From positions 1 through 62,482 of the forward strand of contig CAKOXI010000005.1 in NCBI GenBank assembly GCA_934130045.1: 62,482 nucleotides of DNA, read 5' to 3'. Both the position numbers and the translations under genes were made by a program. The DNA comes from an uncultured Bacilli bacterium. GTDB lineage: Bacteria; Bacillota_I; Bacilli_A; RF39; UBA660. The stretch's first letter is position 1; the number at the start of each line of letters is the position of its first letter. Positions 8,957 to 35,386 of the stretch are shown piece after piece. The notes under the pieces are model-generated. The model was not told where the DNA came from and did no database searches. It saw nothing but the letters and a program-made list of their open reading frames with translations.

Positions 8957-10702
8957 GTGCAAAAAAAGTTAGAATTTGTATTAAAAAATAAATATAAATT
9001 GCTTACATTGACTTTGTTTTTGTTCTTTTTTATTCAAATGCAATTTGTATTTTTTTATGGTGATGATTTTGAAGTTTTATATCCTATTCATAATAATCAT
9101 GAAATTTTTAATATATTGAATTTTTGTTTTGATAAATTAAATTATTTTTGGTTTCAATGGTCAGGAAGAATAATAGGTCATGCCGTTGTAACCTTTGGTT
9201 TATCTTTTTTTGGAATTAATTTTTTTAGAATTTTAAATCCAATTATGGTATTAATTTTTGTTTATTTAATTTTAAAAATTCTTAAATTATTTAAACAATT
9301 TAATTTTGAAAAATTATTTTTTTATTTTTCATTTATATTTTTAGGAATGAATGTTTATTTATCTAGAGAAATATTATATTGGGCTTATTCTAGTATTCTT
9401 TATTTATGGGGATTTAATTTAATTTTATTTGTAATCTATATTGTATATAAAAATTATCTTGAAAACAAAAAGATAGAAAAAGATTACTTTATTTGGGTTA
9501 TAATAGCAACTGTTTCTTCTGTTTTTATTTTAGAACAATTTAGTTTTATATTAATATTCTTTTTTTCAATAATGTTTTATTTTTCTTGGAAAAATCATAA
9601 AAATTATAAACAAATTTTTGCCTTACTATGTGTATTAGTATTATCTATTATTGTGTATTTAATGGCTCCCGGTAGATTTCTTCGTACAAAACCTTTAGTA
9701 GAAGAACTTGAATTATATAATAACATTCAAATTATTTTAGGTAAAACTCACTCTTTATTTAATATTATATTTAATCCTAAATTACTTGGAATGTATATTT
9801 CTATATTTATGCTGTTATTAAGTAAAAAATATTTAAGTATAATTAATAATAAATTTAGATATAAAATACCATATATTTTTATATTGAGTTATTTTTTTAT
9901 ATTAATAATATCCAAATTTTTTAATATAAATTTATTACTCTTTAATGAAACTTATGATGCGATGAATCCATTATATAAAATATCTTTTTTATCAACTGTT
10001 GAAAAAACATTATTAATTAGTGCACTTGTATTAATAATATTATATTATATAGCTCTTATTATTAATTTATTTTATATGGTATATAAAGTTTTTTATAAAG
10101 AAAATAAATTTTTGTTTTATATGCTTTTAATTGGGTTTGGAACAACAATTATTACTGCTGTTCTTATTAGATATATTGGAATGCGTTATTATGTTTATTT
10201 TTTAATTTCTATTTTATTCTTGTCTATTTATTTAATTTTGGATTTGAAAAACAATTCTTTTGATATAAAATCATTATTTTTTCTTGGATGTTCATTACCA
10301 TATAATTATTCAATAGCAGTATCGGTTATTATATTGATAATATTATTTATGAATGATAAATTATATAAAAAAATGTCTAAAAATTCTAATAAGATTGTTT
10401 ATTTATTATGCATTTTAATTTGTTTGTTTAATTTATTTGATACATTTTTTGGATACGTTAGAAATAGTAAAATATATAAAAAAAATGAAGAACTTTTAAT
10501 TAATACAAATGATGATATTGCATTTTCAATTGATGCGATTCCTGATAGTGATAAACTATATGGTTGGCACACTATAAATACTAGATGGAATGTTACTGAT
10601 AAGTATTATGGATTTTATCTTAATAAATTTTATAAATCTTATTATGGAATTAATATGGATAATGTATATATAAAAACAGAGGATGGTTATTATGTTAGGT
10701 AG
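8957..10702 (+). CDS. Polytopic integral membrane protein, GT-C-like (function unknown)
   Basis: 581 aa, almost entirely hydrophobic helices. Acidic YGDDFE motif directly after TM1. Hydrophilic ~80-aa C-terminus. Confidence 0.5.
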   Translation: MQKKLEFVLKNKYKLLTLTLFLFFFIQMQFVFFYGDDFEVLYPIHNNHEIFNILNFCFDKLNYFWFQWSGRIIGHAVVTFGLSFFGINFFRILNPIMVLIFVYLILKILKLFKQFNFEKLFFYFSFIFLGMNVYLSREILYWAYSSILYLWGFNLILFVIYIVYKNYLENKKIEKDYFIWVIIATVSSVFILEQFSFILIFFFSIMFYFSWKNHKNYKQIFALLCVLVLSIIVYLMAPGRFLRTKPLVEELELYNNIQIILGKTHSLFNIIFNPKLLGMYISIFMLLLSKKYLSIINNKFRYKIPYIFILSYFFILIISKFFNINLLLFNETYDAMNPLYKISFLSTVEKTLLISALVLIILYYIALIINLFYMVYKVFYKENKFLFYMLLIGFGTTIITAVLIRYIGMRYYVYFLISILFLSIYLILDLKNNSFDIKSLFFLGCSLPYNYSIAVSVIILIILFMNDKLYKKMSKNSNKIVYLLCILICLFNLFDTFFGYVRNSKIYKKNEELLINTNDDIAFSIDAIPDSDKLYGWHTINTRWNVTDKYYGFYLNKFYKSYYGINMDNVYIKTEDGYYVR

Positions 10703-12485
10703 TATTATTTATATTTTTTCATTTATTTTACTAATAAGCACTTTTTTATTAATAAAAAAAAGTGATAAGAAATTAAATATTATAAAATGGTTATTTATTG
10801 CATTTGTATTAATTTTTTGTTTAAATTCAGTAATTGTTTTTATATTAAGTTATATTGGTATTAAAAGCAATCTTATTACTATTAGTATAATATATATAAT
10901 TTTAAGTTTATTTATTATTTTATTTTATCTAACTAAAGAAAGGCAAAAGTATTTTTTTAATAAAAAGGATTTAATTTATATTGGTGTTATTTTTGTAGTT
11001 GTTTTAGTTATTTCTATTATAAGGTTTGGATTTCCATTTTCTATTGTTTATCAAACATTTGATCCAGCAATTCATTATCAAAGTTCTTATAGTTTCTATA
11101 AGTATTCTTATTTATTAAATTTTGTTCAGGAAAAAACTATGCTGAATTTTGAAACTTGGAGATTTGCTTCTTATACAAATTTAGGAATAATTTTTAAAAT
11201 TTTTTCATGTTTTATGAATGAAAATAACTTTTATAATTTATATATATTATTTGATTTATTTACATTATTTTTAACAGGAGTATTATTTTATTTTCTAATT
11301 GATAATAATAAAAACAGAATTGTAAAACTAATAGGATGTATAATTTTTATTTGTGGATATCCCTTGAATAATTTAATAATTGGATTCTTTTATGTTGGTC
11401 ATGCATCTTTAATAATTATTTCTATTTTTTTAATTATAAATGAATTAGAAAGAAAATATATTAATAATATTTTATTATTTATTTTAAATATTGGTTTAAT
11501 GTTTACTTATTATTTGTATGTTCCAATTATTTATTGTGCTGAATTTTTATATTTTATAAAGAATAGAGAAAAAAGATTATTTTCTAAATCTATTTTATTA
11601 TTTGGAATACCTATAATTTTGGGCTTTTTATATTTTATATATCCAACATTTTCTAATAATGATATGAATTTAGGCAATCAAATTCATCTGGATGGTTACT
11701 TTTATAATGATGTTATTGGAAATACACTTTTGTTTTTACCAATTGCAAGCTTTTATTTTTATTATAAATTAAAAGAGAAAAAAATTAATTTTGAAATGAT
11801 AGCATTCATTGTATTAATAAGTTTTATGATTATTTTAAATATTTGTATGCTTTTAAATATTATATTACCTTATTATGTTTCAAAATATTATTATATATTA
11901 TGGATATTTTGTTTCATTATTTTATTTAAAACATTTGATGAGTATTATTCACTCAATAAATTTGTATTTAAAAATTATGCGATATTTATGCTATTTACTA
12001 TAGTTTTGTCTATAAGTAATATAGAAAATGCAATTATTAATTTAAATGAAGGAGAACATAATAAAACTACACCAAATATGTTATTTAATGTTTATAATTA
12101 TAATTTAAAAGAAATTATTAATCCAGTTATTGTATTTAATAATAATGAATTAAATGAAATAAAGAATGTATCCAAAAATATAGATATAGATTTTTATACA
12201 AATACGGAACCTGAAAGAATTATGTGGTTAATTAATTTTATTAATAATGGAAAACTTGATTGTCCAGTAAATTATACTTATGAATGTTTAAAAAAGAATT
12301 ATTATATGGAATTAGATGATTATGTTAATACTAGGGATAATAAAAAAAATTTTATTTTTTTTCCAAGAACTATATATTGGAAAGAATTATATAGTAGTGA
12401 TATTTTAAATACTGCTACATATTTAGAAGAAAAAAATTTTTTAATAGAAAGTTATAATTCATTTATTGTAATTAGAGGTAATTAG
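10692..12485 (+). CDS. Polytopic integral membrane protein, paralogue A (GT-C-like layout)
   Basis: About 450 aa of TM helices plus a ~150-aa hydrophilic C-terminal domain. Shares RFGFPFSIVYQTFDP, LDGYFYN and KKINFEMI with the 14183-16111 product. ATG at 10692 with GAGGA RBS preferred. Confidence 0.5.
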   Translation: MLGSIIYIFSFILLISTFLLIKKSDKKLNIIKWLFIAFVLIFCLNSVIVFILSYIGIKSNLITISIIYIILSLFIILFYLTKERQKYFFNKKDLIYIGVIFVVVLVISIIRFGFPFSIVYQTFDPAIHYQSSYSFYKYSYLLNFVQEKTMLNFETWRFASYTNLGIIFKIFSCFMNENNFYNLYILFDLFTLFLTGVLFYFLIDNNKNRIVKLIGCIIFICGYPLNNLIIGFFYVGHASLIIISIFLIINELERKYINNILLFILNIGLMFTYYLYVPIIYCAEFLYFIKNREKRLFSKSILLFGIPIILGFLYFIYPTFSNNDMNLGNQIHLDGYFYNDVIGNTLLFLPIASFYFYYKLKEKKINFEMIAFIVLISFMIILNICMLLNIILPYYVSKYYYILWIFCFIILFKTFDEYYSLNKFVFKNYAIFMLFTIVLSISNIENAIINLNEGEHNKTTPNMLFNVYNYNLKEIINPVIVFNNNELNEIKNVSKNIDIDFYTNTEPERIMWLINFINNGKLDCPVNYTYECLKKNYYMELDDYVNTRDNKKNFIFFPRTIYWKELYSSDILNTATYLEEKNFLIESYNSFIVIRGN

Positions 12486-12487
12486 TA

Positions 12488-14176
12488 ATGAAAAAATACA
12501 TATTAACTACAATTATTATGTTGTTTGGTTTAACATCCCTTTTATTAATTTGTAATTTTTTTAATACAAATAAAATCAATGAAAATGTTACAAAAAGCAT
12601 GGAAACTTATAATTATTTTGATAGTAAAAAGTTTAATTTAGATATTGATAATTATACTGATATGATAATGCTAAATATTATGTCATATAATGATAATTCT
12701 ATTATAAAGAGAAGTTTTGATAATAAATATGGAATTATGTATATTGATAAATTTGGTGATAAAGAAGTATATTGGAATCAATTTGAAAACTTGATTTCTA
12801 CTTTAGAAAAAAGAAATGATGATGTTATTTTATATGGAAGATTTTGGCATGGTTACCAAATAATATTAAAACCATTACTTATGGTATTTACATATCAACA
12901 ATCTTTATTTTTTCTTTCAATAATAGGTATTTTTTTAATCGTATTTTCTTGTTTTCTTTTATTTAAAAAAACAAATTTTAAAATACTTATGAGCTATTTA
13001 TTTTCTCTTTTATCACTTAATATATTTGTTTTTAATACTTGTTATCAATATTATTTTTCAATGATATTAATGATTGTTTTTAATATAATAATTTTGTTAA
13101 ACTATAAACTTCAAAAATTTGATTACAAATTTATGTTTTATATTTTTGGTTGTTTAACTGCTTATTTTTTGTTTATTAGTTTTCCACTAATTACCTTATG
13201 TTTTCCATTATTATTGTTTATGATATTGGAGTTTTCTAATAATAAATTTGAAAATTATAAGGAAAATATTTTAAAAATTATTAAATCTAGTATATTTTGG
13301 ATTTTGGGATATGTTTTATTCTTTTCATTAAAATGGATAATAGGAAGTTTATTTGGTAGTGAAAATTTTTTGGAAAATGCTTTAATGGCAATTAATCAAA
13401 GATTAGGATTAACATTTTCATTTAAGTATATTGATATTTTAAAATTGAACTTAGCATATTTCTTTAATTTTAAATTTAATATTATTTTGGTTTTCAGTTC
13501 TTTAATTATTATTTTTATTCAAATGCGTAAAAATTTTACTATAAAATTAAAGATTATTTCTCCATTTTTATTAATTTTTTTAATGCCATTTATTTGGATG
13601 TTTATATGTAATAATCATAGTGGTGTTCATTATTGGATGATTTCTAGATTGTTTTCGATATCAATTTTTTCACTATTATTTATTAGTTACTTCTTACTAT
13701 CAAATAAACAGTATAATGAAATAGAACATTTAAAAATAGATGATTATTTATTTTTATTAATTACTTTAATGTTTTTTATCTTGTATAAGTTTAATTTTAT
13801 ATTTATAATTTTATGTTTATTTATAATTTTTAAATATCACAAAAATAAAACATTAAATATATATATTATTTTATTAATAATTTTAAGTACATTATTATCT
13901 ATTAATAAATTTTTTGATAAACGTATTTTTAATGATAGTTTATTTTATGAAAATATATATAAAGAACTTTATCATAAAGCTATAATGTATGGAGAAGAGT
14001 ACGCAAAGAAAAATAATATATTTGTTGATACTAAAGTTGAACTTCATGATTTAATAGATATAATTAATTCCGATAGTGTTTTTTTACTTAGTTGTGATGG
14101 TTATATTATAGTTAATAATGAAAGTGTTACTCCATATATTGATTGTAATAATAAAATAAATATTAAAAATAATTAG
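12488..14176 (+). CDS. Polytopic integral membrane protein (function unknown)
   Basis: 562 aa. N-terminal TM, ~110-aa loop (YGRFWHGYQ), many TM helices, ~100-aa hydrophilic C-terminus. Tightly packed in the same operon. Confidence 0.45.
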   Translation: MKKYILTTIIMLFGLTSLLLICNFFNTNKINENVTKSMETYNYFDSKKFNLDIDNYTDMIMLNIMSYNDNSIIKRSFDNKYGIMYIDKFGDKEVYWNQFENLISTLEKRNDDVILYGRFWHGYQIILKPLLMVFTYQQSLFFLSIIGIFLIVFSCFLLFKKTNFKILMSYLFSLLSLNIFVFNTCYQYYFSMILMIVFNIIILLNYKLQKFDYKFMFYIFGCLTAYFLFISFPLITLCFPLLLFMILEFSNNKFENYKENILKIIKSSIFWILGYVLFFSLKWIIGSLFGSENFLENALMAINQRLGLTFSFKYIDILKLNLAYFFNFKFNIILVFSSLIIIFIQMRKNFTIKLKIISPFLLIFLMPFIWMFICNNHSGVHYWMISRLFSISIFSLLFISYFLLSNKQYNEIEHLKIDDYLFLLITLMFFILYKFNFIFIILCLFIIFKYHKNKTLNIYIILLIILSTLLSINKFFDKRIFNDSLFYENIYKELYHKAIMYGEEYAKKNNIFVDTKVELHDLIDIINSDSVFLLSCDGYIIVNNESVTPYIDCNNKINIKNN

Positions 14177-14182
14177 AAAAGG

Positions 14183-16111
14183 GTGAGTTGTTTGATTAAT
14201 TCTATTATATATTTAATTTCTTTTATTATTTTGGTTACAACTTTTATGCTTTTGAAAAAATCTTTAAATAAACAAAATGTGTTAATGTGGATTTTTTTAT
14301 CTTTTATGTTAATGTTTTGTTATAATTCAGTAGTAGTTTTTATATTAAGTTTATTTTATATAAAAAGTACATTATTGATTTTATCAATTGTTAATTTTTT
14401 GTTTTCAGTATTATTTTTATTACATATTTTTAAAACCAAAACAATACAAAAATATTATTTAAAAAAATTTGATTTATTAGCTATTTTCATAATAGTATTA
14501 GCAACTATTATTATTGGATACTTTCGATTTGGATTTCCCTTTAAAATAGTTTATGAAACTTGCGATCCTGGAACTCATTTTTGGACATCTATGGAATTTT
14601 TTAGAGAATCAATTTTATTAAATAAAGCGATAGTAACTGTAGATTTTTCTTCTCGTGTGTTTGGTTCTTATGTAAATATGGGAATAATTTTTAAAATTTT
14701 TTATCCTTATGTTGGGTACATAAATTTATATTTTATCTATATTCTTTATGATTTATTTATGTTAGCTATGTCAGGAATTACCTTTTACTTTTTGATAAGA
14801 TATATTTGTAAGGAAAATAAAGGTTTATTTGCTTTAATCTTTAGTATAATTTATTTTACAGGTTATCCTTTAAATAGTATGATATTTGGTTTTTTCTATT
14901 CGGGACATGTTGTAACTTTAATTTGTATTTTAATACTTTTATATAAATTTTTTGATAATAAGGAAATTAGTTATAAATTCAATTTGATACTTTTAATGAT
15001 TGTTAATATAGGTATATGTTTTGCTTATTATCTTTATTTACCAATACTATTTGTTTGTGAAACAATATATTTTATTTATTTAAAGAAAACTAAACAAATT
15101 GATAAAAATAATTTGCTAAAATCCTTTTTATTAGTTATAATTTTACCTTTAATTCTTACTTTATCGTATTTTGTATTTCCTTATATTGGTAATAATCAAC
15201 ATAGTATTTTTTATCAGTTAAGTTTAGATGGATATTTTTATAATAGTTATTTTTCTAATTTTATTTTATTTGTTCCTATAATTGTTTACTATATTATAAA
15301 TATGTTGAAAAATAAAAAATTAAATTTTGAAATGATTTTATTATTTAGTGTAATCAGTTTTATAATATTTATTATAATTTTATCTATCATGAATATTGCT
15401 ATGCAGTATTATGCTTCTAAGTTTTTTTATACATTATGGCTTGTTAATTTTATTTTGATATTTGATTTTTATATAAAAAACGATATAAAAAAATTATACT
15501 TAAATATCTATATAGCTTCGTTTTTACTTGTTCTTATCTTTACTGTATTTAGTATTGAAGATAAATTATATGATCAAAATAAATCATTTGGTAATAGGAT
15601 TGAATCATTAAATCTTTTGAATGTATATAATTGGAATATTGATAAAATTAAATATTCAAATATAACTTTCACACCAGATGAAATAAAAATCATAAAAGAA
15701 TTATATAATTTGGGTGCTTATAATGTTATAAATAATTTTATTCATTCATTTAATTCACAAAGATTATGGTTAAATGCATTTTTTTGGAATCAAAGATTAG
15801 ATTATCCTGAAAATGAAGTATATGATTATATGGTAAAGGATGTATTTTTTGATCCAATTAATTATAATAGTTATAAAAAAATGGATAATAATTATAAATA
15901 TTTTGTTATTTTTTATAGGGAATATGATCCTAGAAAATGGGATGGTTATAGTGAAGTTTATCCTTATGAAGTTCAAAGAAGATGGAATGCTAATTTTAGA
16001 AAAGATTATACAATTAATAGAATTTATGATTATATTAAAATAGATAGAAATACATGTGTTAATTGTAAATTTATTGATTTTGATACAGGTGTTATAATTA
16101 TTAAAGGATAA
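14183..16111 (+). CDS. Polytopic integral membrane protein, paralogue B (GT-C-like layout)
   Basis: Collinear similarity to the 10692-12485 product (RFGFPFKIVYETCDP, LDGYFYN, KKLNFEMI) with a longer hydrophilic C-terminal domain. Start is GTG 14183 or TTG 14192. Confidence 0.5.
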   Translation: MSCLINSIIYLISFIILVTTFMLLKKSLNKQNVLMWIFLSFMLMFCYNSVVVFILSLFYIKSTLLILSIVNFLFSVLFLLHIFKTKTIQKYYLKKFDLLAIFIIVLATIIIGYFRFGFPFKIVYETCDPGTHFWTSMEFFRESILLNKAIVTVDFSSRVFGSYVNMGIIFKIFYPYVGYINLYFIYILYDLFMLAMSGITFYFLIRYICKENKGLFALIFSIIYFTGYPLNSMIFGFFYSGHVVTLICILILLYKFFDNKEISYKFNLILLMIVNIGICFAYYLYLPILFVCETIYFIYLKKTKQIDKNNLLKSFLLVIILPLILTLSYFVFPYIGNNQHSIFYQLSLDGYFYNSYFSNFILFVPIIVYYIINMLKNKKLNFEMILLFSVISFIIFIIILSIMNIAMQYYASKFFYTLWLVNFILIFDFYIKNDIKKLYLNIYIASFLLVLIFTVFSIEDKLYDQNKSFGNRIESLNLLNVYNWNIDKIKYSNITFTPDEIKIIKELYNLGAYNVINNFIHSFNSQRLWLNAFFWNQRLDYPENEVYDYMVKDVFFDPINYNSYKKMDNNYKYFVIFYREYDPRKWDGYSEVYPYEVQRRWNANFRKDYTINRIYDYIKIDRNTCVNCKFIDFDTGVIIIKG

Positions 16112-16146
16112 TAATTATATTATTTAAAGTAGGAGAGAATTTAATT

Positions 16147-17871
16147 ATGAAAAGGTTGAGAAAAATATTTTTAATATTTTTAATAATTTTAAATTTTTTG
16201 TCTATAGTTTTAGGATTTAGAAATTTAGATTCTATCTCAAACGAAAGTTTATTATTATCATTATGTATAATTTTGTTTACAAACTTTATAATTTTTATAA
16301 AATGGAAACCATTATTAAATATTAAATTAAATTCTAAATTATTAATTTTTTCTTTAATTTTAACTATTTTATTTTGTATTATGTTACCATTAAATTTTTG
16401 CTTAGATAGAATATATTTGTATAATTATATTCCAATTATTAATTTAATCATAAAAATAATTTTTTCTATTTCATTATTTATTTCAATATTTATAATTATT
16501 ATGTTATTATTTTCATGTAATTTAAAGCATGATAAATGTTTAAATAAAACAAAAAAAGTAATGAAAATAATCATTTTTGTAATAAGTTTATTTTTTATAA
16601 TGAGTACAAGCACTGGTTTTTACGATTATGATTTTCAAAGTATATGGAGTTATGAAGTTGAAGGATTAAGTAACTGGCATACATTCTCATTTATGTTTCT
16701 TATCTATTTTGTAAAAATTATCTTTGGTAATCCTTATCCCATAATAATTTTTAATTTATTTTTATATGTATATTATTTTAATTACGCTATTGATTTAATC
16801 GACAAATATAGTAATAAAAAATCTCTTGTTTATTTATTTTTCTTTTTTAATTTATTTTCAGTAGTATGCTTTGAACAACTTAGATATGTAAAAAAAGATG
16901 TTTTATTTGCTTTAGGGTTTTGTAATTTAATTTTAACTTTTTTTGATTATTTAAATAGTAAAAAATTTTCGGTAAAATTATTTTTAAAAATGTTATTTTT
17001 TTCTATAATCACATCTTTATTTAGACATGGTGGAATATTGTTAACAGTTTTTTTCTTTATCATAATGTTGATATATTTAGTCATAAAAAAAATATATAAG
17101 CAAGTACTATATCCGATTATTTTAGTTGGTATTAATATTATTTTATATTTACTTTTAAACTACATTGGTTTTAATGTATTAAATGGATATAATTATCCTA
17201 AAAATGTTACATATACTGTTCCTATTTATCAGGTTGGAGCTTTTGCGCATGATGGATATGAATTCTCTGAATTAGAAAAAGATTATTTAAAAAATTATTT
17301 ATCAGTTGATTATATGAAAGAGCATTTTGTTAAATATAATGGTGATGCTTTGGCAAGAATTTATATAAATAATTATAATTTTGATTATAGTAAATTAATT
17401 AATTTAAATTATAAATTATTAAGAAAAAATCCAATATTTTATGTGCGTTCTTTATTAGATTTAACTAATATTTTATGGAAGATAGAAAAGGAATATTCTG
17501 AATGGCAAAAATTTTTTTATAAGGTTGAGTCTAGTGAATTACTTGATAAATACAAAGATACAACTATTAAATGGCAGGAAACCTTTTTAAATAAAATTGT
17601 TGATCGTGCTGTAAATATTTGTTTAAAAAGTGTTTTCTTTAATTTAAGAGTTAGAGGTGGATTTCCTTTATTTATAATATTTGTATCAATATTTTTATTA
17701 ATTTATAAAAAACAAAAAATATATTTATTACCAATTTGTGTCGTTTTATTTTGGGAATGTTGTTTATTTTTAAGTTTACCAACGGGTATGACTAGATATG
17801 TATTACCATTTATAAATATTTATCCATTTCTGTTCTGTTTTTCATTAGGAATTGATAAAAATTCTAATTAA
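16147..17871 (+). CDS. Polytopic integral membrane protein (function unknown)
   Basis: 574 aa, many TM helices with one ~150-aa hydrophilic region near the C-terminal third. AGGAG RBS. Confidence 0.45.
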   Translation: MKRLRKIFLIFLIILNFLSIVLGFRNLDSISNESLLLSLCIILFTNFIIFIKWKPLLNIKLNSKLLIFSLILTILFCIMLPLNFCLDRIYLYNYIPIINLIIKIIFSISLFISIFIIIMLLFSCNLKHDKCLNKTKKVMKIIIFVISLFFIMSTSTGFYDYDFQSIWSYEVEGLSNWHTFSFMFLIYFVKIIFGNPYPIIIFNLFLYVYYFNYAIDLIDKYSNKKSLVYLFFFFNLFSVVCFEQLRYVKKDVLFALGFCNLILTFFDYLNSKKFSVKLFLKMLFFSIITSLFRHGGILLTVFFFIIMLIYLVIKKIYKQVLYPIILVGINIILYLLLNYIGFNVLNGYNYPKNVTYTVPIYQVGAFAHDGYEFSELEKDYLKNYLSVDYMKEHFVKYNGDALARIYINNYNFDYSKLINLNYKLLRKNPIFYVRSLLDLTNILWKIEKEYSEWQKFFYKVESSELLDKYKDTTIKWQETFLNKIVDRAVNICLKSVFFNLRVRGGFPLFIIFVSIFLLIYKKQKIYLLPICVVLFWECCLFLSLPTGMTRYVLPFINIYPFLFCFSLGIDKNSN

Positions 17872-18176
17872 TATACGATAGCAACTGCCATTGTATATTT
17901 TTTTTCATGTGATATAGATAATTTTATATTACTATTATTTGAACAATATGGACTTCCAAATTTGTCTGTTAGAATTTCAAAATCTAAAAAACAATATTTT
18001 TTTGTATTTGGCATTGCTTTCATTATTGCTTCTTTAGCTGCAAATCTACCACATAAATATAAATTTCCTTTTTTCTTAAATTCAATTTGTTCTTTTTCAG
18101 TTAATATAAAATCAATAAATCTTTGTTCTTTATTTTCTAATCTTTTATTTTTTATAATATCGCAACCTATATTCAT
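17868..18176 (-). CDS. acpS: Holo-[acyl-carrier-protein] synthase (4'-phosphopantetheinyl transferase)
   Basis: MNIGCDII...GRFAAKEAIMKA...LSISHEKKYTMAVAIV is collinear with AcpS. GGAGG sits 10 nt upstream of the ATG at 18176 (the ORF track extends to 18236). Its stop overlaps the convergent upstream gene by 4 nt. Confidence 0.8.
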   Translation of the reverse strand: MNIGCDIIKNKRLENKEQRFIDFILTEKEQIEFKKKGNLYLCGRFAAKEAIMKAMPNTKKYCFLDFEILTDKFGSPYCSNNSNIKLSISHEKKYTMAVAIVY

Positions 18177-18299
18177 AGTATTAGTACCTCCAAATTTATT
18201 TAATTCTATTTTATCTTTATTTTTTTTTATATGCAATAGATTAATTTAATTAATTTATTTGAAATATTTATATTATTGTTATATAATTGATATGGTGAT

Positions 18300-20084
18300 A
18301 TGATGATTGAACTACAGTATCCATTTGATGTTGATTATATATTTCAAAATAAAAGAAAAATAAAAAAACAGTTGTTATTAAAACAAAATTTAATTGAAAA
18401 AAATATTGCGATTTTAGGTGGTTCTACAACTGGTGAGATAAAAAATATTTTAGAAATTTTTTTATTAAATTATGGAATTAAACCTAATTTTTATGAATCT
18501 AAATATAACATGTATTATGAAGATGCAATGTTCTTTAATGATGAGTTAATTAATTTTAAACCTGATATTGTATATATACATACAACTTTAAAAAATATTT
18601 TAAAGTTTCCAACTATTAATGATAATGAAGAAAAAATAAATGATTTATTAGATAGTCAATATTTAAAATTTGAAAGTATGTGGAATAGTATCTATAAAAA
18701 ATTTAATTCAGTTATAATTCAAAATAATTTTGAGTATCCGAGTTATAGATTACTTGGAAATAAAGATGCTAGTGATATCCATGGGAAAATAAATTTTATT
18801 ACAAAGTTGAATCAAAGATTTTATGATTATGCTAATAAAAATAGAAATTTTTTTATTAATGATATAAATTATGTATCATCTTGTTATGGATTAGATAAAT
18901 GGTTAAATGATTTTTATTGGCATCAATATAAATATGCTATGGATTTTTCTGCAATACCATATTTAGCTTTTAATTTAGCTAATATTATAAAATCTATTTA
19001 TGGATATAATAAGAAATCAGTAATATTAGATTTAGATAATACATTATGGGGTGGAGTTATTAGTGAAGATGGTCTTGATAAAATAAAGATAGGTAATGGT
19101 AATCCTATAGGGGAAGCTTATTTAGAGTTTCAAAAATATTTAAAAGAATTAAAAAGCATTGGAATTGTTTTAAATATAAATTCTAAAAATTATTATGAAG
19201 ATGCAATAATGGGATTAAATAGTCAGTTTTGCCTATTGAAACCTAATGATTTTGTTATTATTAAAAGTAATTGGGAAAACAAAAATATAAATGTTGATTC
19301 TATTGTTCATGATTTAAATTTGGGGAATGAAGCTTTTGTTTTTGTTGATGATAATCCTGTAGAAAGAAATTTGGTAAGAATTAGTAATATTGGTGTTTCT
19401 GTTCCAGAGGTAAATAAAATAGAAGAATACATTAAAATTATTGATCACAATGGCTATTTTGAGATAACTAATTTTTCTAATGAGGATTTAAATAAAACTG
19501 AGTTATATAAATCAAATCTTAAAAGAAGTGAAAATGTGAAAATGTATAATAATTATAGAGATTATTTGTTATCACTTAATATGGTTGCTGAAATTGAATC
19601 ATTTAAATCAATTTATATGGATAGAATTTGTCAACTTATAAATAAAAGTAATCAGTTTAATTTAACGACTAAAAGATATTCATGCTCTAGTCTTGAGGCA
19701 ATCAAAAATGATAATAGTTTTATTACTTTATATGGTAAATTATCTGATATTTATGGTGATAATGGATTAGTATCAATAGTTATTGGAAAGATAAAAGAAG
19801 ATTTTACTTTGCATATTGACTTATGGGTTATGAGTTGTAGAGTTTTAAAACGTGATTTAGAGTTTGCAATGATGAATAAACTTGTGAATGTTGCTAAAAA
19901 AAATCATTTAAAATACATATATGGATATTATTATCCTACTTTAAAAAATGAAATGGTTAGTGATTTTTATAGTAAATGTGGATTTGAAGAAATTTCAAAT
20001 ACCTGTGATAGTAAAATATACAAATTAGATATATTAAATTTTAATTATATGGATGTACCAATTGAGGTGAAGAATAATGCATGA
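18300..20084 (+). CDS. FkbH-like HAD-IIIC family protein with GNAT-like C-terminal domain
   Basis: LDLDNTLWGGVISEDG (DxDxT), NINSKN, FVDDNPVERN, and C-terminal WVMSCRVLKRDLE, which is typical of the FkbH family. Confidence 0.8.
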   Translation: MMIELQYPFDVDYIFQNKRKIKKQLLLKQNLIEKNIAILGGSTTGEIKNILEIFLLNYGIKPNFYESKYNMYYEDAMFFNDELINFKPDIVYIHTTLKNILKFPTINDNEEKINDLLDSQYLKFESMWNSIYKKFNSVIIQNNFEYPSYRLLGNKDASDIHGKINFITKLNQRFYDYANKNRNFFINDINYVSSCYGLDKWLNDFYWHQYKYAMDFSAIPYLAFNLANIIKSIYGYNKKSVILDLDNTLWGGVISEDGLDKIKIGNGNPIGEAYLEFQKYLKELKSIGIVLNINSKNYYEDAIMGLNSQFCLLKPNDFVIIKSNWENKNINVDSIVHDLNLGNEAFVFVDDNPVERNLVRISNIGVSVPEVNKIEEYIKIIDHNGYFEITNFSNEDLNKTELYKSNLKRSENVKMYNNYRDYLLSLNMVAEIESFKSIYMDRICQLINKSNQFNLTTKRYSCSSLEAIKNDNSFITLYGKLSDIYGDNGLVSIVIGKIKEDFTLHIDLWVMSCRVLKRDLEFAMMNKLVNVAKKNHLKYIYGYYYPTLKNEMVSDFYSKCGFEEISNTCDSKIYKLDILNFNYMDVPIEVKNNA

Positions 20085-20322
20085 AAAAGATATTTATGAT
20101 AAATTAAATAAAGTATTTCAAACAGTATTTGATGATGATAGTATTGTAGTCAATTGTTCTACAAATTCTAGTGATATTGCTGATTGGGATAGCTTAGAAC
20201 ATATAAATTTGCTTGTTGCAGTTGAAAAAAGCTTTGGTATTAAATTTGATATGAGTGAAGTAATAGATATGAATAATGTTGGTGATATGGTAAAAATTAT
20301 ATTATTAAAATTAAACAAATAG
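20077..20322 (+). CDS. Acyl/peptidyl carrier protein
   Basis: 81 aa. Phosphopantetheine-attachment type motif DIADWDSLEHINL. The ATG overlaps the stop of the FkbH-like gene (ATGCATGA). Confidence 0.8.
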   Translation: MHEKDIYDKLNKVFQTVFDDDSIVVNCSTNSSDIADWDSLEHINLLVAVEKSFGIKFDMSEVIDMNNVGDMVKIILLKLNK

Positions 20323-20339
20323 TTTTAAGTGGTAATTAT

Positions 20340-21866
20340 ATGAGTTTAGTTTCTTTAAAATTTTTGTTTTTTTGTTTATTTGTAATTATGGTTTACTTTA
20401 TTACACCTAAAAAATTTCAATGGATTATTTTACTTTTATCCAGTATCTTTTTTCTTTTTTATAAAAATTTTAGTTTTTTTTCTGTGTTACAAGCTCTTAT
20501 TGTCTTAATAACTAGTTATTTTTTTGCTATTAAAATATATCAAAATAAATCATCAAAAAAGTCTAAACATTTTTTAATTTTAGGAATAACAATAATATTA
20601 AGTCAATTATTTTATTTAAAATATTCTAATTTAATTTTGATAACATTAAATCATTTATTTAATTTTTTTAACATTGATTTTAATTTAGATTTAGTATATA
20701 GAAATTCATTAATTGGTATTAGTTATTATTCCTTAATTATGATTGGGTATTTAATAGATGTTTATAGAGGTATGTGTGTTCCACAAAAAAATATTTTTAA
20801 ATGTGCTTTATTTATGACATATTTTCCTATTTTAACATCTGGTCCCTTTGTAAGATATAATAATATGCAGAATGAATTATATAATGGTCATAAATTAAAT
20901 TATGATAGATTATGTATGGGACTTATTAGAATTCTTTTTGGAATGTTTAAGGTACTTGTGATATCTAAAAGAATTGGTTTTTATGTTGACTCTGTATATG
21001 GTAATTTAGCTAATTATCAGGGATTATTTGTTGTAATTGCGATTTTTTTATTTCCAATCCAATTGTATACAAATTTTTCAGGCTCGATTGATATTATTAT
21101 GGGAATCTCAGAAATTATTGGCATTAATTTACCAGAAAATTTTAAAACACCATTTTTTTCTAAAACAATTACTGAATTTTGGAGAAAATGGCATATAACT
21201 TTAGGATCTTGGCTTAGAGATTATATATTTTATCCAATTGCTAAATCAGATTTTATACAGAATTTTCGCACATTTATTACAAAAAAGTGTGGTAAGTGGT
21301 GTGGTAGAAAATTGCCAATATATTTATCTATGTTGGTTATGTGGTTATTAATAGGAATTTGGCATGGAGGGGAATATAAATATATTATAAGTTCTGGAAT
21401 ATTACAATTTATCATCATGGTATTAGAGGATATTTTAGAACCTGTTTTTATTAAAATAAATAAAAAAATTGGTATAAAAAATGATGTTTTTAGTTATAAA
21501 CTATATCAGTGTTTAAGAACTTATTGTTTATTTTCATTTGCTATGATTTTTTTTAGAGCATCTAGTATTACAAATGCGTTTGAAATAATAAAAAATATGT
21601 TTATATGGAATCCATGGATTTTATTTGATGGTTCATTATATTATGCTGGTTTGGATGCACCGGATTTTAAAGTTTTAATTATTGCAATTTTTGTTTTATT
21701 GATAGTTGAAATAATTGGACAAAGTGGTTCTGTAAGGGAAAAATTATTCAATCAAAATATAATTTTTAGATGGACAATTATATATATGCTAATATTTTTT
21801 GTTGTAATTTTTGGTTGTTATGGTGTTGGGTATGATGCTACTCAGTTTATCTATGGAAAATTCTAG
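20340..21866 (+). CDS. MBOAT family membrane O-acyltransferase (DltB/AlgI-like)
   Basis: 508 aa polytopic. FWRKWHITLGSWLRDYIFYP and IGIWHGG (conserved His) motifs. Confidence 0.88.
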   Translation: MSLVSLKFLFFCLFVIMVYFITPKKFQWIILLLSSIFFLFYKNFSFFSVLQALIVLITSYFFAIKIYQNKSSKKSKHFLILGITIILSQLFYLKYSNLILITLNHLFNFFNIDFNLDLVYRNSLIGISYYSLIMIGYLIDVYRGMCVPQKNIFKCALFMTYFPILTSGPFVRYNNMQNELYNGHKLNYDRLCMGLIRILFGMFKVLVISKRIGFYVDSVYGNLANYQGLFVVIAIFLFPIQLYTNFSGSIDIIMGISEIIGINLPENFKTPFFSKTITEFWRKWHITLGSWLRDYIFYPIAKSDFIQNFRTFITKKCGKWCGRKLPIYLSMLVMWLLIGIWHGGEYKYIISSGILQFIIMVLEDILEPVFIKINKKIGIKNDVFSYKLYQCLRTYCLFSFAMIFFRASSITNAFEIIKNMFIWNPWILFDGSLYYAGLDAPDFKVLIIAIFVLLIVEIIGQSGSVREKLFNQNIIFRWTIIYMLIFFVVIFGCYGVGYDATQFIYGKF

Positions 21867-21874
21867 GTGAATGT

Positions 21875-22909
21875 ATGAAAAAAATATTTAAAATTATTTG
21901 CTTTACTTCAATTTTAATTTTATTATGGAAGTATGTATTTTCTATATTGTGGTTACCAAAAAACAATATATCTTTTTTCTATGATGAGAAAGAAAATAGT
22001 ATTGATGTTATATATATTGGGGGTAGTAATGTTCATCATCATTTCAATAATTTATTAGCATACCACCTATATGGATTTACTACTTATCTTTTATCATCCG
22101 GAATTCAGCAATTTACACTTACAAAATCTCTTATTGAAGAATCAAGAAAATATCAAAATCCTAAATTGTATGTTATTGACCTAGCAAGATTAACTGATGA
22201 TTTTGAATCATCCTATAATGAACCATGGGGGAGATTTGTAGTTGATTCTCTTAAAAATTCTAAAACTAGAACAATGGCAATTAATGAAATGTTAGAATAT
22301 GCTAAAGTAGAAAAATCACAATATATAAATTATTATTTTAGTTTTTTTAAATATCATAACAGCTGGAAAGATATTAATAGGCAAAGTTTTAATAGCACTT
22401 TAAATGAATTTAAAGGTTATTATGCTTATGATTATGCATTTGAAGTAAATCCACAGGAAACATTTGTATGGAAAGATGATATTGAGCCATTAGAACCTGA
22501 TAATGAAAAAGTTTTACTTGATTTAATTGAGTATATAGAAAATAATGATTTAAATGTTTTATTTGTAATTCCTAAAAGTACTTTTTGGACACCTAATTAT
22601 GAAAGACTTAATTATGCAACTGAAATTATTAAAAAGCACAATTTGGATATTATAAATTTTAATAAATTAGATGATATTGATTTAAATTATGAAACAGATT
22701 TTTATGATAAGATTCATTTAAACGTATATGGTGCAACCAAATATACACTGTATTTTTCAAAATATTTAAAAGAAAAATATAATCTAGGTAATAATCAAGA
22801 TGATGAAATATTTTCTTCTTGGAACCAAGAGTATAATAGATTTGTAGATAAATTTAATAATGTTACTGGAGAAAATTTTGAAAGTATTTTAGAAAGATAT
22901 TTAAAATAA
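21875..22909 (+). CDS. N-terminally anchored SGNH/DltD-like (DHHW-type) extracytoplasmic acyltransferase or esterase, copy 1
   Basis: Single N-terminal TM. Block I-like YIGGSNV. Block V-like DFYDKIHLNVYG (DxxH). Directly downstream of the MBOAT gene. Confidence 0.6.
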   Translation: MKKIFKIICFTSILILLWKYVFSILWLPKNNISFFYDEKENSIDVIYIGGSNVHHHFNNLLAYHLYGFTTYLLSSGIQQFTLTKSLIEESRKYQNPKLYVIDLARLTDDFESSYNEPWGRFVVDSLKNSKTRTMAINEMLEYAKVEKSQYINYYFSFFKYHNSWKDINRQSFNSTLNEFKGYYAYDYAFEVNPQETFVWKDDIEPLEPDNEKVLLDLIEYIENNDLNVLFVIPKSTFWTPNYERLNYATEIIKKHNLDIINFNKLDDIDLNYETDFYDKIHLNVYGATKYTLYFSKYLKEKYNLGNNQDDEIFSSWNQEYNRFVDKFNNVTGENFESILERYLK

Positions 22910-22945
22910 TAATTGTTATATGCGATAATGAAATAGGTGGTTTTT

Positions 22946-23989
22946 ATGAAGAAAATAGTAAAAGTTATTTTGTTTATTACTTTTTTATTTGTTTTATGGA
23001 AAATAGTATTTTCAGTATTATGGTTACCAAAAAATAATATTTCGTATTTTTATGAAGAGCCAAAAAATACATTAGATATTATTTATATTGGAGCTAGTAA
23101 TGTTGATCAACATTTTAATCCTTTATTAGCGTTTGATTTGTATGGATTTACGACTGGATTTTTGTCAACAAGTTCTCAACCTTTTATTGCAACAAAATTA
23201 CTTATTCAAGAATCTTTAAAAAAACAAAAACCTAGTCTTTATATTATTGACTTAATTAGATCACAAGATGATTTTAGTTTTGATTATAGTGAAGCAAGGA
23301 CAAGAGAAGTGGTTGATCCTATACCATTTTCTATTAATAAAATAAATACTATAAATCAAATTTTGAAATATGGAAAAGTATCAAATGATGAATATATATA
23401 TTATTATTTTAGTTTTTTTAAATATCATAATATTTGGAAAGAAAGTTATAATAGTCGTTTATATAAAATTAAAAATAAATATAAAGGTTATACTTTTTAT
23501 GCAGATAATTTAAAACAAAATCCTCAAAAAGAAAATATTTGGAAAGATGAAATAATTGAAATGGAAAATGATAATAAAATGGTTTTATTAGAGTTACTTG
23601 ATTATATAAAAAAGGAAAATTTAAATGTTTTATTTGTTGTTCCTAATGTATGTGATAATTGGACTCCTAATCAGGAGAGAATTAATGATGCTATAAGAGT
23701 AATTGAGCAAAATGGTTATAATGTAATTAACTTTAATAAATGGCATGATTTTATAGTAGATTATGAAACTGATTTTTATAATTCATCACATTTAAATATA
23801 TATGGAGCAACCAAATATACTCTATATTTATCTGAGTATTTAAAAAATAATTATAAATTACCAAATCATAAAGGTGATATAAATTTTGAAACATGGCAAG
23901 ATGGTTACTATCTTTTTAAGAATGAACTTTATAATTCTTACAGAATAAATTTTGATAGTATTTTACTTAAATATAAACAAAATTATTAA
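22946..23989 (+). CDS. N-terminally anchored SGNH/DltD-like protein, copy 2
   Basis: Collinear paralogue of the 21875-22909 product (WLPKNNIS.FY.E, YIGASNV, NVLFV.P, DFYNSSHLNIYGATKYTLY). AGGTGG RBS before the ATG at 22946. Confidence 0.6.
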   Translation: MKKIVKVILFITFLFVLWKIVFSVLWLPKNNISYFYEEPKNTLDIIYIGASNVDQHFNPLLAFDLYGFTTGFLSTSSQPFIATKLLIQESLKKQKPSLYIIDLIRSQDDFSFDYSEARTREVVDPIPFSINKINTINQILKYGKVSNDEYIYYYFSFFKYHNIWKESYNSRLYKIKNKYKGYTFYADNLKQNPQKENIWKDEIIEMENDNKMVLLELLDYIKKENLNVLFVVPNVCDNWTPNQERINDAIRVIEQNGYNVINFNKWHDFIVDYETDFYNSSHLNIYGATKYTLYLSEYLKNNYKLPNHKGDINFETWQDGYYLFKNELYNSYRINFDSILLKYKQNY

Positions 23990-30341: not shown

Positions 30342-30381
30342 AATGGTGTATAGTGGTTGAAAGTGGCGAATAGTGGGTGAT
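30342..30381 (+). promoter_or_regulatory. Candidate MraZ operator: four 10-bp-phased direct repeats
   Basis: aaTGGtgtat / agTGGttgaa / agTGGcgaat / agTGGgtgat, with TGG at 30344, 30354, 30364 and 30374. Lies between the -10 box and the mraZ ATG. Confidence 0.6.
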
Positions 30382-30385
30382 TTAT

Positions 30386-30820
30386 ATGTTGATGGGTGAG
30401 TATCATCATATTATCGATGAAAAAGGTAGACTTACAATTCCATCTAAAATTAGATATGAATTAGGAGATGGATTTGTAATTACAAGAGGTTTAGATAATT
30501 GTTTATCTATTTATCCTAAAGTTGAATGGAATTCAATTATTGAAAAGTATAAGCTATTACCTCAAACCAAAGATGTTAGAAATTTTATGAGAATTTTTTT
30601 ATCAGGTGCAACTGTCTTAGAATTTGATAAACAAGGAAGAATAAATATACCATCTACACTTATAGAGTTTGCTAATTTAACCAAGGAATGTATAATTATT
30701 GGCGTTAATAATCGTATAGAGATTTGGAGTCAAGATAATTGGAATAATTTTATTAAAGTTAATGAAGATAATTTTTCAGATATAGCTGATAACTTATTTA
30801 GTTCTAATATTAATTTATAA
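30386..30820 (+). CDS. mraZ: Transcriptional regulator MraZ
   Basis: MLMGEYHHIIDEKGRLTIPSK and a second SpoVT/AbrB-like repeat (DKQGRINIPS). First gene of the dcw cluster. Confidence 0.93.
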   Translation: MLMGEYHHIIDEKGRLTIPSKIRYELGDGFVITRGLDNCLSIYPKVEWNSIIEKYKLLPQTKDVRNFMRIFLSGATVLEFDKQGRINIPSTLIEFANLTKECIIIGVNNRIEIWSQDNWNNFIKVNEDNFSDIADNLFSSNINL

Positions 30821-30830
30821 GAGGTGTAAT

Positions 30831-31754
30831 ATGCATAAAAGTGTTTTACTAGAGAGTTGTTTAGAATATTTAAATTTAGGTGAAAATAGTATTATTGTTG
30901 ATTGTACCTTAGGATATGCTGGGCATAGTAGTAGAATACTTGAAAAAATAACTAATGGTTTTTTATATTGTTTTGATCAAGACAATGAAGCCATTAATTA
31001 TAGCCAAAATAAATTAGCTAAAATAGCTTCTAATTATGAAATTATAGAAAGTAATTTTGTTAATTTAGAATGTGAATTAAAAAAAAGAGGTATTGATAGT
31101 GTTGATGGTATTTTATTTGATTTAGGAGTTTCATCTCCTCAATTAGATGAAGACTACCGTGGATTTAGTTTTCATAAAGATGCACCACTTGATATGAGAA
31201 TGAATACTAAACAAGATTTGTCAGCTTATTATGTTGTTAATAACTATTCTAGTGAAGAATTAATTAAAATTTTTAGAGATTATGGAGAAGAAAAATATGC
31301 TTCTAGTATTGCTCATAAAATAGTTGATTATAGAAAAAATAAGCCAGTTGAAACAACTTTAGAGCTAGTTGAAATAATAAAGTCTTCTGTTCCAGAAAAA
31401 TATAAACGTGAAAAGCATCCAGCTAGGAAAGTATTTCAAGCAATTAGAATAGAAGTAAATCATGAACTAGATGTCTTTGACTCAGCTTTAAGACAAGCAT
31501 TAGAACTAGTTAATGTTGGTGGAAGGGTTTGTGTTATAACATTTCATTCTCTAGAAGATAGAATTTGTAAAAATATTTTTAAAGAATACAGTACAGTTGA
31601 TAAAAATATTAGTAAATTACCAATTATACCAGATGATCTTGAGCCTAAATTTAAAGTGGTTGCTACAATTTCTCCAGATTTAAAGGAATTAGAAGAAAAT
31701 AATCGTAGTAGAAGTGCTAAATTACGAGTTATAGAAAGAGTAAAGAAGGGTTAA
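30831..31754 (+). CDS. rsmH: 16S rRNA (cytosine1402-N4)-methyltransferase RsmH
   Basis: HKSVLL...DCTLGYAGHS...FDLGVSSPQLD...FHSLEDR motifs. Confidence 0.93.
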   Translation: MHKSVLLESCLEYLNLGENSIIVDCTLGYAGHSSRILEKITNGFLYCFDQDNEAINYSQNKLAKIASNYEIIESNFVNLECELKKRGIDSVDGILFDLGVSSPQLDEDYRGFSFHKDAPLDMRMNTKQDLSAYYVVNNYSSEELIKIFRDYGEEKYASSIAHKIVDYRKNKPVETTLELVEIIKSSVPEKYKREKHPARKVFQAIRIEVNHELDVFDSALRQALELVNVGGRVCVITFHSLEDRICKNIFKEYSTVDKNISKLPIIPDDLEPKFKVVATISPDLKELEENNRSRSAKLRVIERVKKG

Positions 31755-31755
31755 T

Positions 31756-32052
31756 ATGAAGAAAAAAAAGATAAGAAAAATGAAATTTAGTAAAGGTGAA
31801 AAGTTGTTGTATTCTGTGTCTTTTTTGTGCCTAATTACTACTATGGTTTTAAAAATATTTTGTGGTGCTAGTATTGGACATTTGAGTATGAGTGTTGAAA
31901 AATTAAAATATAATATTTCAGAACAAGAAAAGAAAATAGAAAGTTTAAATATGCAAGTTAATGAACTTACTTCTTTTACTGAAGTTCAAGATGTTGTAAA
32001 AAACATGGGATTGTCTTATAATAATCAAAATGTAATCATTATTAATGAGTAA
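31756..32052 (+). CDS. ftsL: Cell division protein FtsL
   Basis: 98 aa. Basic N-terminus, one TM, coiled-coil segment. Conserved position between rsmH and the PBP gene. Confidence 0.7.
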   Translation: MKKKKIRKMKFSKGEKLLYSVSFLCLITTMVLKIFCGASIGHLSMSVEKLKYNISEQEKKIESLNMQVNELTSFTEVQDVVKNMGLSYNNQNVIIINE

Positions 32053-32064
32053 TGGAGGAATTAT

Positions 32065-35384: not shown

Positions 35385-35386
35385 TT

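Follow-up and report, generated by a model that had tools for sequence, protein, structure and literature searches.

Acylation of envelope polymers by pathways that pair a membrane-bound O-acyltransferase (MBOAT) with an SGNH protein affects antibiotic and lysozyme resistance, recognition by phages and by the immune system, and the properties of biofilms. To our knowledge, the Dlt pathway is the only known example in which such a pair is fed by a carrier protein. In this pathway DltB hands D-alanine from the carrier DltC to a tyrosine that the microprotein DltX carries in its FxYxxF motif; in PatA and its relatives the motif is found at the MBOAT's own C-terminus, on two extra helices, and the donor is an acyl-CoA (PMC12148441). 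The FxYxxF tyrosine has been shown to act as acyl shuttle in both PatA and DltX, and non-Dlt MBOAT/SGNH pathways have been described in 2025 as pathways that 'lack a similar carrier protein' (PMC12148441). The gene cassette analysed here is found at positions 17868-23989 of a 62,482-nt stretch of DNA (hereafter the window) from an uncultured Bacilli bacterium, contig CAKOXI010000005.1. It combines a carrier protein and an MBOAT with a loading enzyme of the FkbH family and with two membrane-anchored proteins, called X1 and X2.

FkbH-type enzymes are the other described relatives. According to the work on OzmB, their conserved cysteine is reportedly the acceptor of the glyceryl intermediate, and bryostatin is said to offer an example of a modular DH-KR-FkbH arrangement. 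The cj1302 locus of Campylobacter jejuni is presumably linked to the di-O-methylglyceroyl groups carried by flagellar nonulosonic acids. FkbH and an acyl carrier protein (ACP) turn 1,3-bisphosphoglycerate into glyceryl-ACP (PMC7489565), and FkbH-type loading modules have been recorded as giving D-lactyl-ACP from the same compound (PMC7901079). The FkbH-domain gene cj1302 sits in the flagellar-glycan locus of C. jejuni (PMC7099621).

It is proposed that the cassette encodes one module, which esterifies an extracytoplasmic glycopolymer of the envelope with a small hydroxy-acyl group, and that the donor is an acyl-carrier protein and not an acyl-CoA. A probability of about 0.6 is assigned to this reading. 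An earlier note on the same DNA had described a Dlt-like cassette consisting of acpS and a run of five genes; all six open reading frames (ORFs) were found between 17868 and 23989 in the ORF list of the 62-kb window, which served as gene map, and the motifs singled out in the note (DLDNT, NSKN, VDDNP, MSCRV, DSLEH, WRKWHITL and WHGG) are all present.

Organization of the cassette

The five co-directional genes lie on the forward strand. They encode the FkbH-family loader (594 aa, 18300-20084), a PP-binding carrier protein (81 aa, 20077-20322), the Pfam MBOAT protein (508 aa, 20340-21866), X1 (344 aa, 21875-22909), which has an N-terminal anchor and a predicted DltD-like fold, and its paralog X2 (350 aa from a GTG start, 22937-23989). 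Consecutive genes are separated by -8, 17, 8 and 27 nt. The 8-nt overlap between the loader stop and the carrier ATG reads ATGCATGA (20077-20084). The acpS gene (17868-18236, reverse strand) is divergent from the cassette. On an identical metagenome contig (L084) acpS has been called from the ATG at 18176 (102 aa), and X2 from the ATG at 22946 (347 aa); these are probably the true starts of both genes.

The loader

The loader scores 219.7 bits against the FkbH model TIGR01686, the cutoff of which is 146.65, and 54.5 bits against that of HAD-IIIC (cutoff 35.75); its first ~230 residues match Pfam FkbH_N with 33.3 bits. Three regions can be told apart on the forward strand. The N-terminal FkbH_N domain spans residues ~36-231 in the Pfam match. 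The HAD-IIIC phosphatase domain (residues ~238-395) hosts D244, D246, T248, S295, K328 and D350, with the DLDNT motif at residue 244 and the NSKN and VDDNP motifs. A putative C-terminal acyl-transfer region features Cys513 in the MSCRV motif (nt 19836-19838). Residues 22-394 align with PDB 3slr, the structural genomics model of BF1531 from Bacteroides fragilis (E 1e-46).

The loader was compared with ZmaN of the zwittermicin cluster, the gene of which is located on a Bacillus cereus plasmid between an ABC exporter and a nonribosomal peptide synthetase (NRPS), and with a Streptomyces FkbH homolog, the gene of which adjoins ACP and acyl-CoA dehydrogenase genes. D244, D246 and T248 (HAD motif I), S295, K328, D350 and the S512-C513-R514-V515 stretch are invariant in the alignment. 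The DxDxT and SCR[VI] motifs are found in 82/82 loader homologs of the fetched loci, and the FkbH catalytic residues, the loss of which had been considered in the earlier note, are kept. Identity to polyketide-type FkbH enzymes is 24-27%. Since these enzymes are ~360 aa long and lack the ~235-aa N-terminal domain, the loader represents a distinct, longer subfamily.

In the FkbH_N domain (residues 1-231, nt 18300-18992) a GGSTT motif (residues 40-44) and D159-x-H161 are invariant in 17 aligned loaders, namely the window loader and homologs from gut metagenomes, and are not kept in the Sinorhizobium meliloti homolog. The pattern looks SGNH-like. Editing or hydrolysis, and docking of the carrier, are possible roles of this domain.

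The Pfam scan took in 38 window ORFs, corresponding to most of the 50 ORFs of at least 100 aa found across the 62 kb. No polyketide synthase (PKS), NRPS, ketosynthase, adenylation/AMP-binding, FabH-like or acyl-CoA dehydrogenase domain was detected in these 38 ORFs, in agreement with the earlier observation that adenylating, ketosynthase, PKS and NRPS genes are missing nearby. The suggestion that an FkbH-type loader takes the place of a D-alanine ligase is supported by the TIGR01686 score and by the lack of AMP-binding domains in the scanned set. The same data bear on a role in secondary metabolism, in which the glyceryl-ACP would be used for a tetronate, or for a methoxymalonyl or hydroxymalonyl extender unit, and the MBOAT would be unrelated, or would serve self-resistance or export. 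This is the sole experimentally established role of FkbH-ACP pairs (PMC7489565), and the Bacillus and Streptomyces plasmid matches of the loader lie in NRPS/PKS clusters. Against it stand the missing synthase, FabH-like and dehydrogenase domains, the shorter format of the polyketide FkbH enzymes and the polysaccharide genes that flank the related loci described below, and a biosynthetic role of this kind is judged very improbable.

The loader and the FkbH, OzmB and ZmaN pathways have in common the HAD-IIIC and C-terminal Cys domains, the shared invariant residues and an adjacent standalone ACP. The cassette differs in the extra FkbH_N domain of ~235 aa, and in the lack of downstream dehydrogenases, O-methyltransferase, FabH-like enzyme and PKS; its product is apparently passed to a membrane acyltransferase, and not to a synthase. 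An FkbH-type protein is likewise shared with C. jejuni cj1302 and B. fragilis BF1531, and in the case of cj1302 the context is also one of glycan modification. Both lack the MBOAT-X export arm, and BF1531 (387 aa) lacks the C-terminal Cys domain as well.

The carrier protein and AcpS

The carrier matches Pfam PP-binding (PF00550) with 23.6 bits (cutoff 20.8) and stays far below the AcpP and DltC equivalog cutoffs, the DltC score being 17.6 bits against a cutoff of 68. The putative phosphopantetheine site is Ser39 in the DSLEH motif (nt 20191-20193), and a DS[LMIVF] motif is found in 79/79 carrier homologs. The closest solved relative is PDB 2lml, a 'putative acyl carrier protein' (E 8e-17), AcpP and DltC matches being far weaker. 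Given this match, carriers of such pathways may form a distinct subfamily.

The acpS product matches Pfam ACPS with 43.8 bits and TIGR00556 with 53.9 bits (cutoff 45.35), and is assigned to the AcpS-type 4'-phosphopantetheinyl transferases. A homolog lies divergently upstream of the loader in 26/80 of the related loci defined below.

The MBOAT and its C-terminal tyrosine

The MBOAT matches Pfam MBOAT (PF03062) with 35.3 bits (cutoff 27). Against the DltB equivalog TIGR04091 it scores 124.4 bits, below the cutoff of 375. Sequence matches in the PDB are to DltB only (6bug and 8jem, E ~1e-15), and cover residues 123-406. The protein has ~10 hydrophobic segments, and the conserved histidines are His285 (WRKWHITL) and His342 (WHGG).

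The protein runs for ~100 aa past the region aligned to DltB. This extension includes two hydrophobic segments and ends with FIYGKF (residues 503-508, nt 21846-21863, forward strand), which matches the FxYxxF acyl-shuttle motif and places the candidate shuttle at Tyr505. The C-termini of the 67 cassette-type MBOATs found in related loci end with FxYxxF in 60 cases and with FxYxx[ILV] in 3, the remaining 4 being truncated ORFs. No DltX gene was found, and the intergenic gaps of the cassette (up to 63 nt) are too short to host one.

Since the DltB score is under the cutoff and the FxYxxF shuttle is C-terminal, the cassette is a cross between the Dlt design and that of the Pat/Alg systems. Judged from its sequence, the MBOAT cannot be counted as an orthologue of DltB; it appears to join a Dlt-style donor, the carrier, to a PatA-style relay, the fused tyrosine. 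The Dlt export logic attributed to the locus by the earlier note is supported for the carrier, the MBOAT and the anchored DltD-like proteins, and has to be amended for the MBOAT, which is not DltB-like in architecture, ends with FIYGKF and would work with no separate DltX.

The comparison with the Dlt system (DltA-DltC-DltB-DltX-DltD) can be detailed as follows. Both feature a tightly packed gene run, a dedicated carrier as cytoplasmic acyl donor and an MBOAT as relay across the membrane, the last two being predicted roles in the cassette, where DltB is the sole PDB sequence match of the MBOAT. Both also feature a single-pass anchored protein, in the cassette a putative transferase with a DltD-like predicted fold. 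In contrast, the adenylating DltA is replaced by the FkbH/HAD-type loader, and DltX by the tyrosine shuttle fused to the MBOAT C-terminus. At the sequence level, the MBOAT falls below the DltB cutoff, the carrier is not DltC-like, and X1 and X2 stay outside the DltD family. Finally, Dlt exports a cationic amino acid, whereas the acyl group of the cassette is predicted to be a neutral hydroxy-acid.

With the PatA/PatB and AlgI/AlgJ/AlgX systems the cassette shares the two extra C-terminal MBOAT helices ending with FxYxxF (PMC12148441), a putative extracytoplasmic Ser-His transferase partner and, in related loci, a context of polysaccharide genes. These systems rely on acetyl-CoA and have no carrier protein (PMC12148441), whereas the cassette gene set comprises a loader, a carrier and often a phosphopantetheinyl transferase. 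The partners differ too, being of the ALGX, AlgJ or PatB type in the former and of the X type in the latter.

X1 and X2

X1 and X2 are paralogs (51% identity), each with one N-terminal hydrophobic helix. The AlphaFold2 model of X1, built from a 30-sequence alignment, has a predicted local distance difference test score (pLDDT) of 91.5 and a predicted template-modelling score (pTM) of 0.89, and shows an alpha/beta domain preceded by an N-terminal helix. When the model was compared to the PDB with Foldseek, the top 11 matches were DltD chains from four entries (probability 0.94-1.0), followed by GDSL/SGNH esterases.

The putative catalytic residues of X1 are the nucleophile Ser51, in the IGGSN motif, and the base His281, in D278-K-I-H; in X2, with residues counted from its GTG codon, Ser54 and His285 are the equivalents. 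Conservation was evaluated in 84 sequences, X1 and X-type ORFs from related loci, 4 of which have gaps at positions 49 and 51. Gly49 is found in 80/80 homologs with a residue at that position. Ser occupies position 51 in 72 of them and Cys in the other 8, an alternation that would be expected of a catalytic nucleophile. His281 is kept in 83/84 sequences, and Asp or Asn occupies position 278.

X1 and X2 have no Pfam or NCBIfam match at default thresholds, and none of 30 aligned X members (X1, X2 and 28 homologs) matched Pfam at E up to 10. Neither is a member of the DHHW or AlgX/AlgJ families, as no Pfam profile match was obtained. The sole PDB profile match of the X family, to the C-S lyase 7qug (E 0.0015 over 84 residues), was judged spurious. 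The earlier label of 'SGNH/DltD-like' therefore survives at the level of the predicted fold, which is closest to DltD, and fails at that of sequence families, DHHW included. X1 and X2 are DltD-like in predicted fold, as modelled for X1, and are not members of the DltD sequence family; their function would be DltD-like as well.

The X family is large, yet has no Pfam model. An exhaustive profile search identified 8,017 clusters at 50% identity (E up to 1e-3), of which 2,072 at E up to 1e-30. Fibronectin type III or GH85_C-like extensions are found in some of its members, and two have an apparent N-terminal AT3 domain, spanning the full profile and scoring below the Pfam gathering threshold; their layout appears to echo that of the AT3-SGNH enzymes of the OatA type. 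P0364, a protein of 868 aa with X at the C-terminus, was considered as a possible MBOAT-X fusion and was rejected on test.

Conservation of the gene set in related loci

Scanning the genome collection with the single loader protein returned no relatives, and an alignment-based scan, with one genome per species, was needed. It identified 501 loader relatives, and the best 80 were taken as the related loci. They are mostly found in metagenome-assembled genomes from rabbit gut labelled Bacilli or Clostridia, and in some Lachnospiraceae, Erysipelotrichales and other taxa.

The gene set recurs in most of these loci, and the neighbourhood conservation that the earlier note had called for is there. 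The carrier gene follows the loader in 77/80 loci. A cassette-type MBOAT is found within 8 kb in 67/80, or in 60/66 when only loci with at least 5 kb downstream are counted, and at least one X gene, in 1-4 tandem copies, in 64/80. Several of the genomes encode a second MBOAT, only 26-31% identical, which is paired with an ALGX-family protein and makes up a classical acetylation pair; in one locus (L086) the partner was recognized by its match to PF16822 ALGX. The loader-linked MBOATs form a similarity group of their own, apart from the ALGX-paired ones.

The region between carrier and MBOAT is empty in the window. In sister loci it often hosts genes for a MaoC-like dehydratase and an SDR, or for a VOC/Glyoxalase_4 protein, all confirmed by Pfam; alternative inserts have been noted in related loci L003-L043 and L002-L070. 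Tailoring genes are found next to the carrier in 55/67 MBOAT-positive loci. VOC alone is present in 25, MaoC and/or SDR in 27, and both types in 3; the remaining 12 have none near the loader. These inserts suggest that the exported acyl group comes in species-specific variants. Because enzymes predicted to act on a carrier-bound acyl group sit between carrier and MBOAT, the cargo of the carrier is plausibly what the MBOAT exports, and the arrangement would be hard to explain otherwise.

By analogy with known pathways, the MaoC and SDR pattern fits a glyceryl group being tailored on the carrier, into lactyl for instance, and the dehydratase and reductase accessories of the sister loci parallel the FkbH loading modules that yield D-lactyl-ACP. 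Within the same architecture, the loader might still act on another acyl phosphate or on a phospho-hydroxyacid, so that the exported ester would not derive from glycerate. The extra N-terminal domain and the distance from the characterised polyketide FkbH enzymes leave room for a different substrate. The conservation of all the residues that are invariant with ZmaN-type enzymes, and the agreement of the MaoC and SDR pair with the route from glyceryl through pyruvoyl to lactyl known from FkbH loading modules, speak for glycerate, and make another substrate quite unlikely.

Polysaccharide genes are recurrent in the flanks of related loci. A polysaccharide pyruvyl transferase, a Bac_transf initiating transferase and the MBOAT and ALGX pair were recognized with Pfam; further genes were read, from N-terminal sequences only, as coding for glycosyltransferases, for a TagD-like cytidylyltransferase and for an AT3 protein. 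PKS genes, which the earlier note had considered as a possible surrounding of homologous cassettes, are not the neighbours found there. A looser version of the module is found on pSymB of S. meliloti (L082, 4562-10443; CP140934.1, 1032067-1037948), beside the rkpR/rkp capsule-export genes. It consists of genes for a VOC protein, an MBOAT ending with FLYQGF, a 409-aa protein, an ACP and an FkbH-type protein of 628 aa. The 409-aa protein was evaluated as an X homolog and rejected (hhalign probability 0.5%); it has no Pfam match, and its annotation as 'TonB-dependent receptor' looks unreliable. In S. meliloti strain 1021 the loader match is split in two, possibly by a frameshift.

Loader-carrier pairs have been found in other company as well. 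A Niveispirillum plasmid (L091, 6779-11259) associates the pair with a WcbI-type putative acetyltransferase and an SDR. A Clostridium perfringens plasmid (L090, 5676-9001) associates it with a hypothetical protein, a nucleotidyltransferase and a VOC protein. It seems that various transferases draw on the FkbH-ACP pair as donor module. In these comparisons of gene content, loader and carrier together have the look of a portable module that donates acyl groups for the decoration of glycans, and the MBOAT-X arm that of the device for extracytoplasmic delivery.

Weighing one module against two

Several observations weigh against the reading of the cassette as a single carrier-fed export module. 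Loader-carrier pairs also occur with no MBOAT (loci L041, L045 and L047), and the Niveispirillum and C. perfringens plasmid pairs tell that the donor module is not obligately tied to one; in S. meliloti the protein in the X position is unrelated to X. The loader has an N-terminal domain that polyketide FkbH enzymes lack. The fused-tyrosine MBOAT architecture uses acetyl-CoA in the cases studied, and could do so here. As for X1 and X2, no sequence-level match to DltD or to any SGNH model was obtained, the PDB profile search found no DltD, and the Foldseek TM-scores of X1 against DltD are only 0.32-0.38 (E ~1e-3).

Part of these data would be accommodated by two independent modules. The MBOAT and X would then be a pair of the PatA/AlgI style fed by acetyl-CoA, in keeping with the FxYxxF motif of the acetyl-CoA-using class, and loader and carrier would serve a separate cytoplasmic acylation of sugars or sugar nucleotides, in keeping with the pairs that have other acyltransferases, or none, nearby, and with the FkbH-domain gene of C. 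jejuni, which belongs to a locus for the cytoplasmic modification of glycans. However, the window cassette has no cytoplasmic acyltransferase that could use the loaded carrier, and neither the ORF list nor Pfam revealed within it any other enzyme able to unload it. The loader-carrier-MBOAT-X order is conserved in the 60/66 loci with adequate flanks. The classical ALGX-paired MBOAT is kept separate from the loader-linked one at 26-31% identity, the latter forming its own group, and the tailoring genes lie between carrier and MBOAT within the same gene run. A split into two modules is on these grounds regarded as unlikely, and the single carrier-fed module is preferred.

Proposed pathway

The acyl group, its acceptor and every chemical step of the single-module pathway are inferred from gene content, protein families, conserved residues, synteny and glycan context. 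An AcpS-type enzyme would prime Ser39 of the carrier. The HAD domain of the loader would act on 1,3-bisphosphoglycerate, as in FkbH, OzmB and ZmaN, and the glyceryl group would be held on Cys513 before its transfer to the phosphopantetheine thiol of the carrier, yielding glyceryl-S-ACP. The loaded carrier would then dock on the cytoplasmic face of the MBOAT, as DltC does on DltB. By means of His342, the MBOAT would move the acyl group to its own Tyr505, in FIYGKF, at the outer face of the membrane, in a manner comparable to that of PatA with acetyl. Ser51 of X1 and Ser54 of X2 would take up the group and hand it on to a glycopolymer of the wall or surface, at its hydroxyls; each paralog probably serves a position or an acceptor of its own.

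In sister species the MaoC dehydratase and the SDR would convert the carrier-bound glyceryl group to pyruvoyl and then to lactyl before export, and the VOC-family protein could possibly be a C2 epimerase. Glyceroyl esters are predicted in the window organism, because the window holds the minimal, untailored cassette.

Genomic context in the window

The DNA is very AT-rich, with a GC content of ~17-28% in 2-kb windows. The 63-nt gap preceding the loader hosts a promoter-like site, TTGAAA-17-TATAAT (18259-18287, forward strand), which has 11/12 matches and is the best of the region; in DNA of such AT content, matches of this kind show no enrichment (68 found, 76 expected), and the site is weak evidence. 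A terminator scan detected no intrinsic terminator in the cassette, and the operon boundaries rest for this reason on gene spacing only.

Directly upstream of the cassette are genes for five consecutive polytopic membrane proteins of 581, 600, 562, 642 and 574 aa (8957-17871, forward strand). The first (8957-10702) matches DUF6056, and the other four have no Pfam match; two of them, encoded at 10683-12485 and at 14183-16111, are paralogs with 38% identity. For the last (16147-17871), which lies next to acpS, the model (pLDDT 81) has as top Foldseek matches Pmt1/2, Pmt4, PglB, ArnT and STT3, all of them GT-C glycosyltransferases, with probabilities of 0.9-1.0, weak E values (0.04-0.1) and TM-scores of ~0.3; a GT-C-like fold is tentatively read from them and agrees with a glycan context. 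A possible role of the membrane proteins is to build the polymer acylated by the cassette, or to glycosylate it. Few other loci have homologs of the array close to the cassette. A radical SAM/SPASM protein is encoded just upstream of the array (8017-8943), preceded by two thioredoxin-like proteins (6353-6991, reverse strand, and 7419-7952, forward strand).

As the window encodes MraZ, RsmH, two PASTA-containing penicillin-binding proteins (PBPs), MraY, FtsW and SpoVAD, the host is taken to be peptidoglycan-walled and probably sporulating. The division and cell-wall cluster (30377-50322) consists of mraZ, rsmH and a PBP gene, followed by the second PBP gene, mraY and ftsW. It is interrupted by genes for a 1149-aa protein with no Pfam match (36364-39813), a TetR regulator (39827-40390, reverse strand) and an MMPL transporter of 1387 aa (40457-44620). 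After ftsW comes an Abi_2 abortive-infection-like gene (49321-50322).

Significance

The cassette is a real, widespread and uncharacterised variant of MBOAT-SGNH polymer acylation. Every component family and the principle of the MBOAT-SGNH relay are already known. New are a second kind of carrier-fed MBOAT system, a non-adenylating loader predicted to tap glycolysis, and a variable layer of tailoring enzymes. The literature searches returned no description of an FkbH loader-carrier-MBOAT-X system, in line with the remark in the earlier note that no characterised example was known. Gene runs annotated as 'HAD-IIIC phosphatase / acyl carrier protein / MBOAT / hypothetical protein' in gut Bacillota and on S. 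meliloti pSymB are hereby given a first functional hypothesis. The system is common, with loader relatives present in 501 species-representative genomes and an X family of ~8,000 clusters at 50% identity.

The wider picture would be that of a family of carrier-dependent MBOAT systems crossing phylum borders, which place glyceroyl, lactyl or epimer esters on envelope glycopolymers by means of plug-in tailoring enzymes and of variable, acceptor-specific transferases. This extension is put forward tentatively, its chances being rated slightly under even.

If the single-module reading is true, the cassette breaks the generalisation that non-Dlt systems use acyl-CoA with no carrier protein (PMC12148441). 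Glycolysis would be linked directly to surface decoration, through 1,3-bisphosphoglycerate and with no ATP-dependent activation. The predicted chemistry is that of base-labile glyceroyl or lactyl esters on wall polymers. In the wider picture these would be an unrecognised class of decorations, with glyceroyl and lactyl groups as neutral isosteres of seryl and alanyl; carrier-protein donors would be no peculiarity of D-alanylation, and the tailoring layer and the number of transferases would diversify surface chemistry among gut bacteria.

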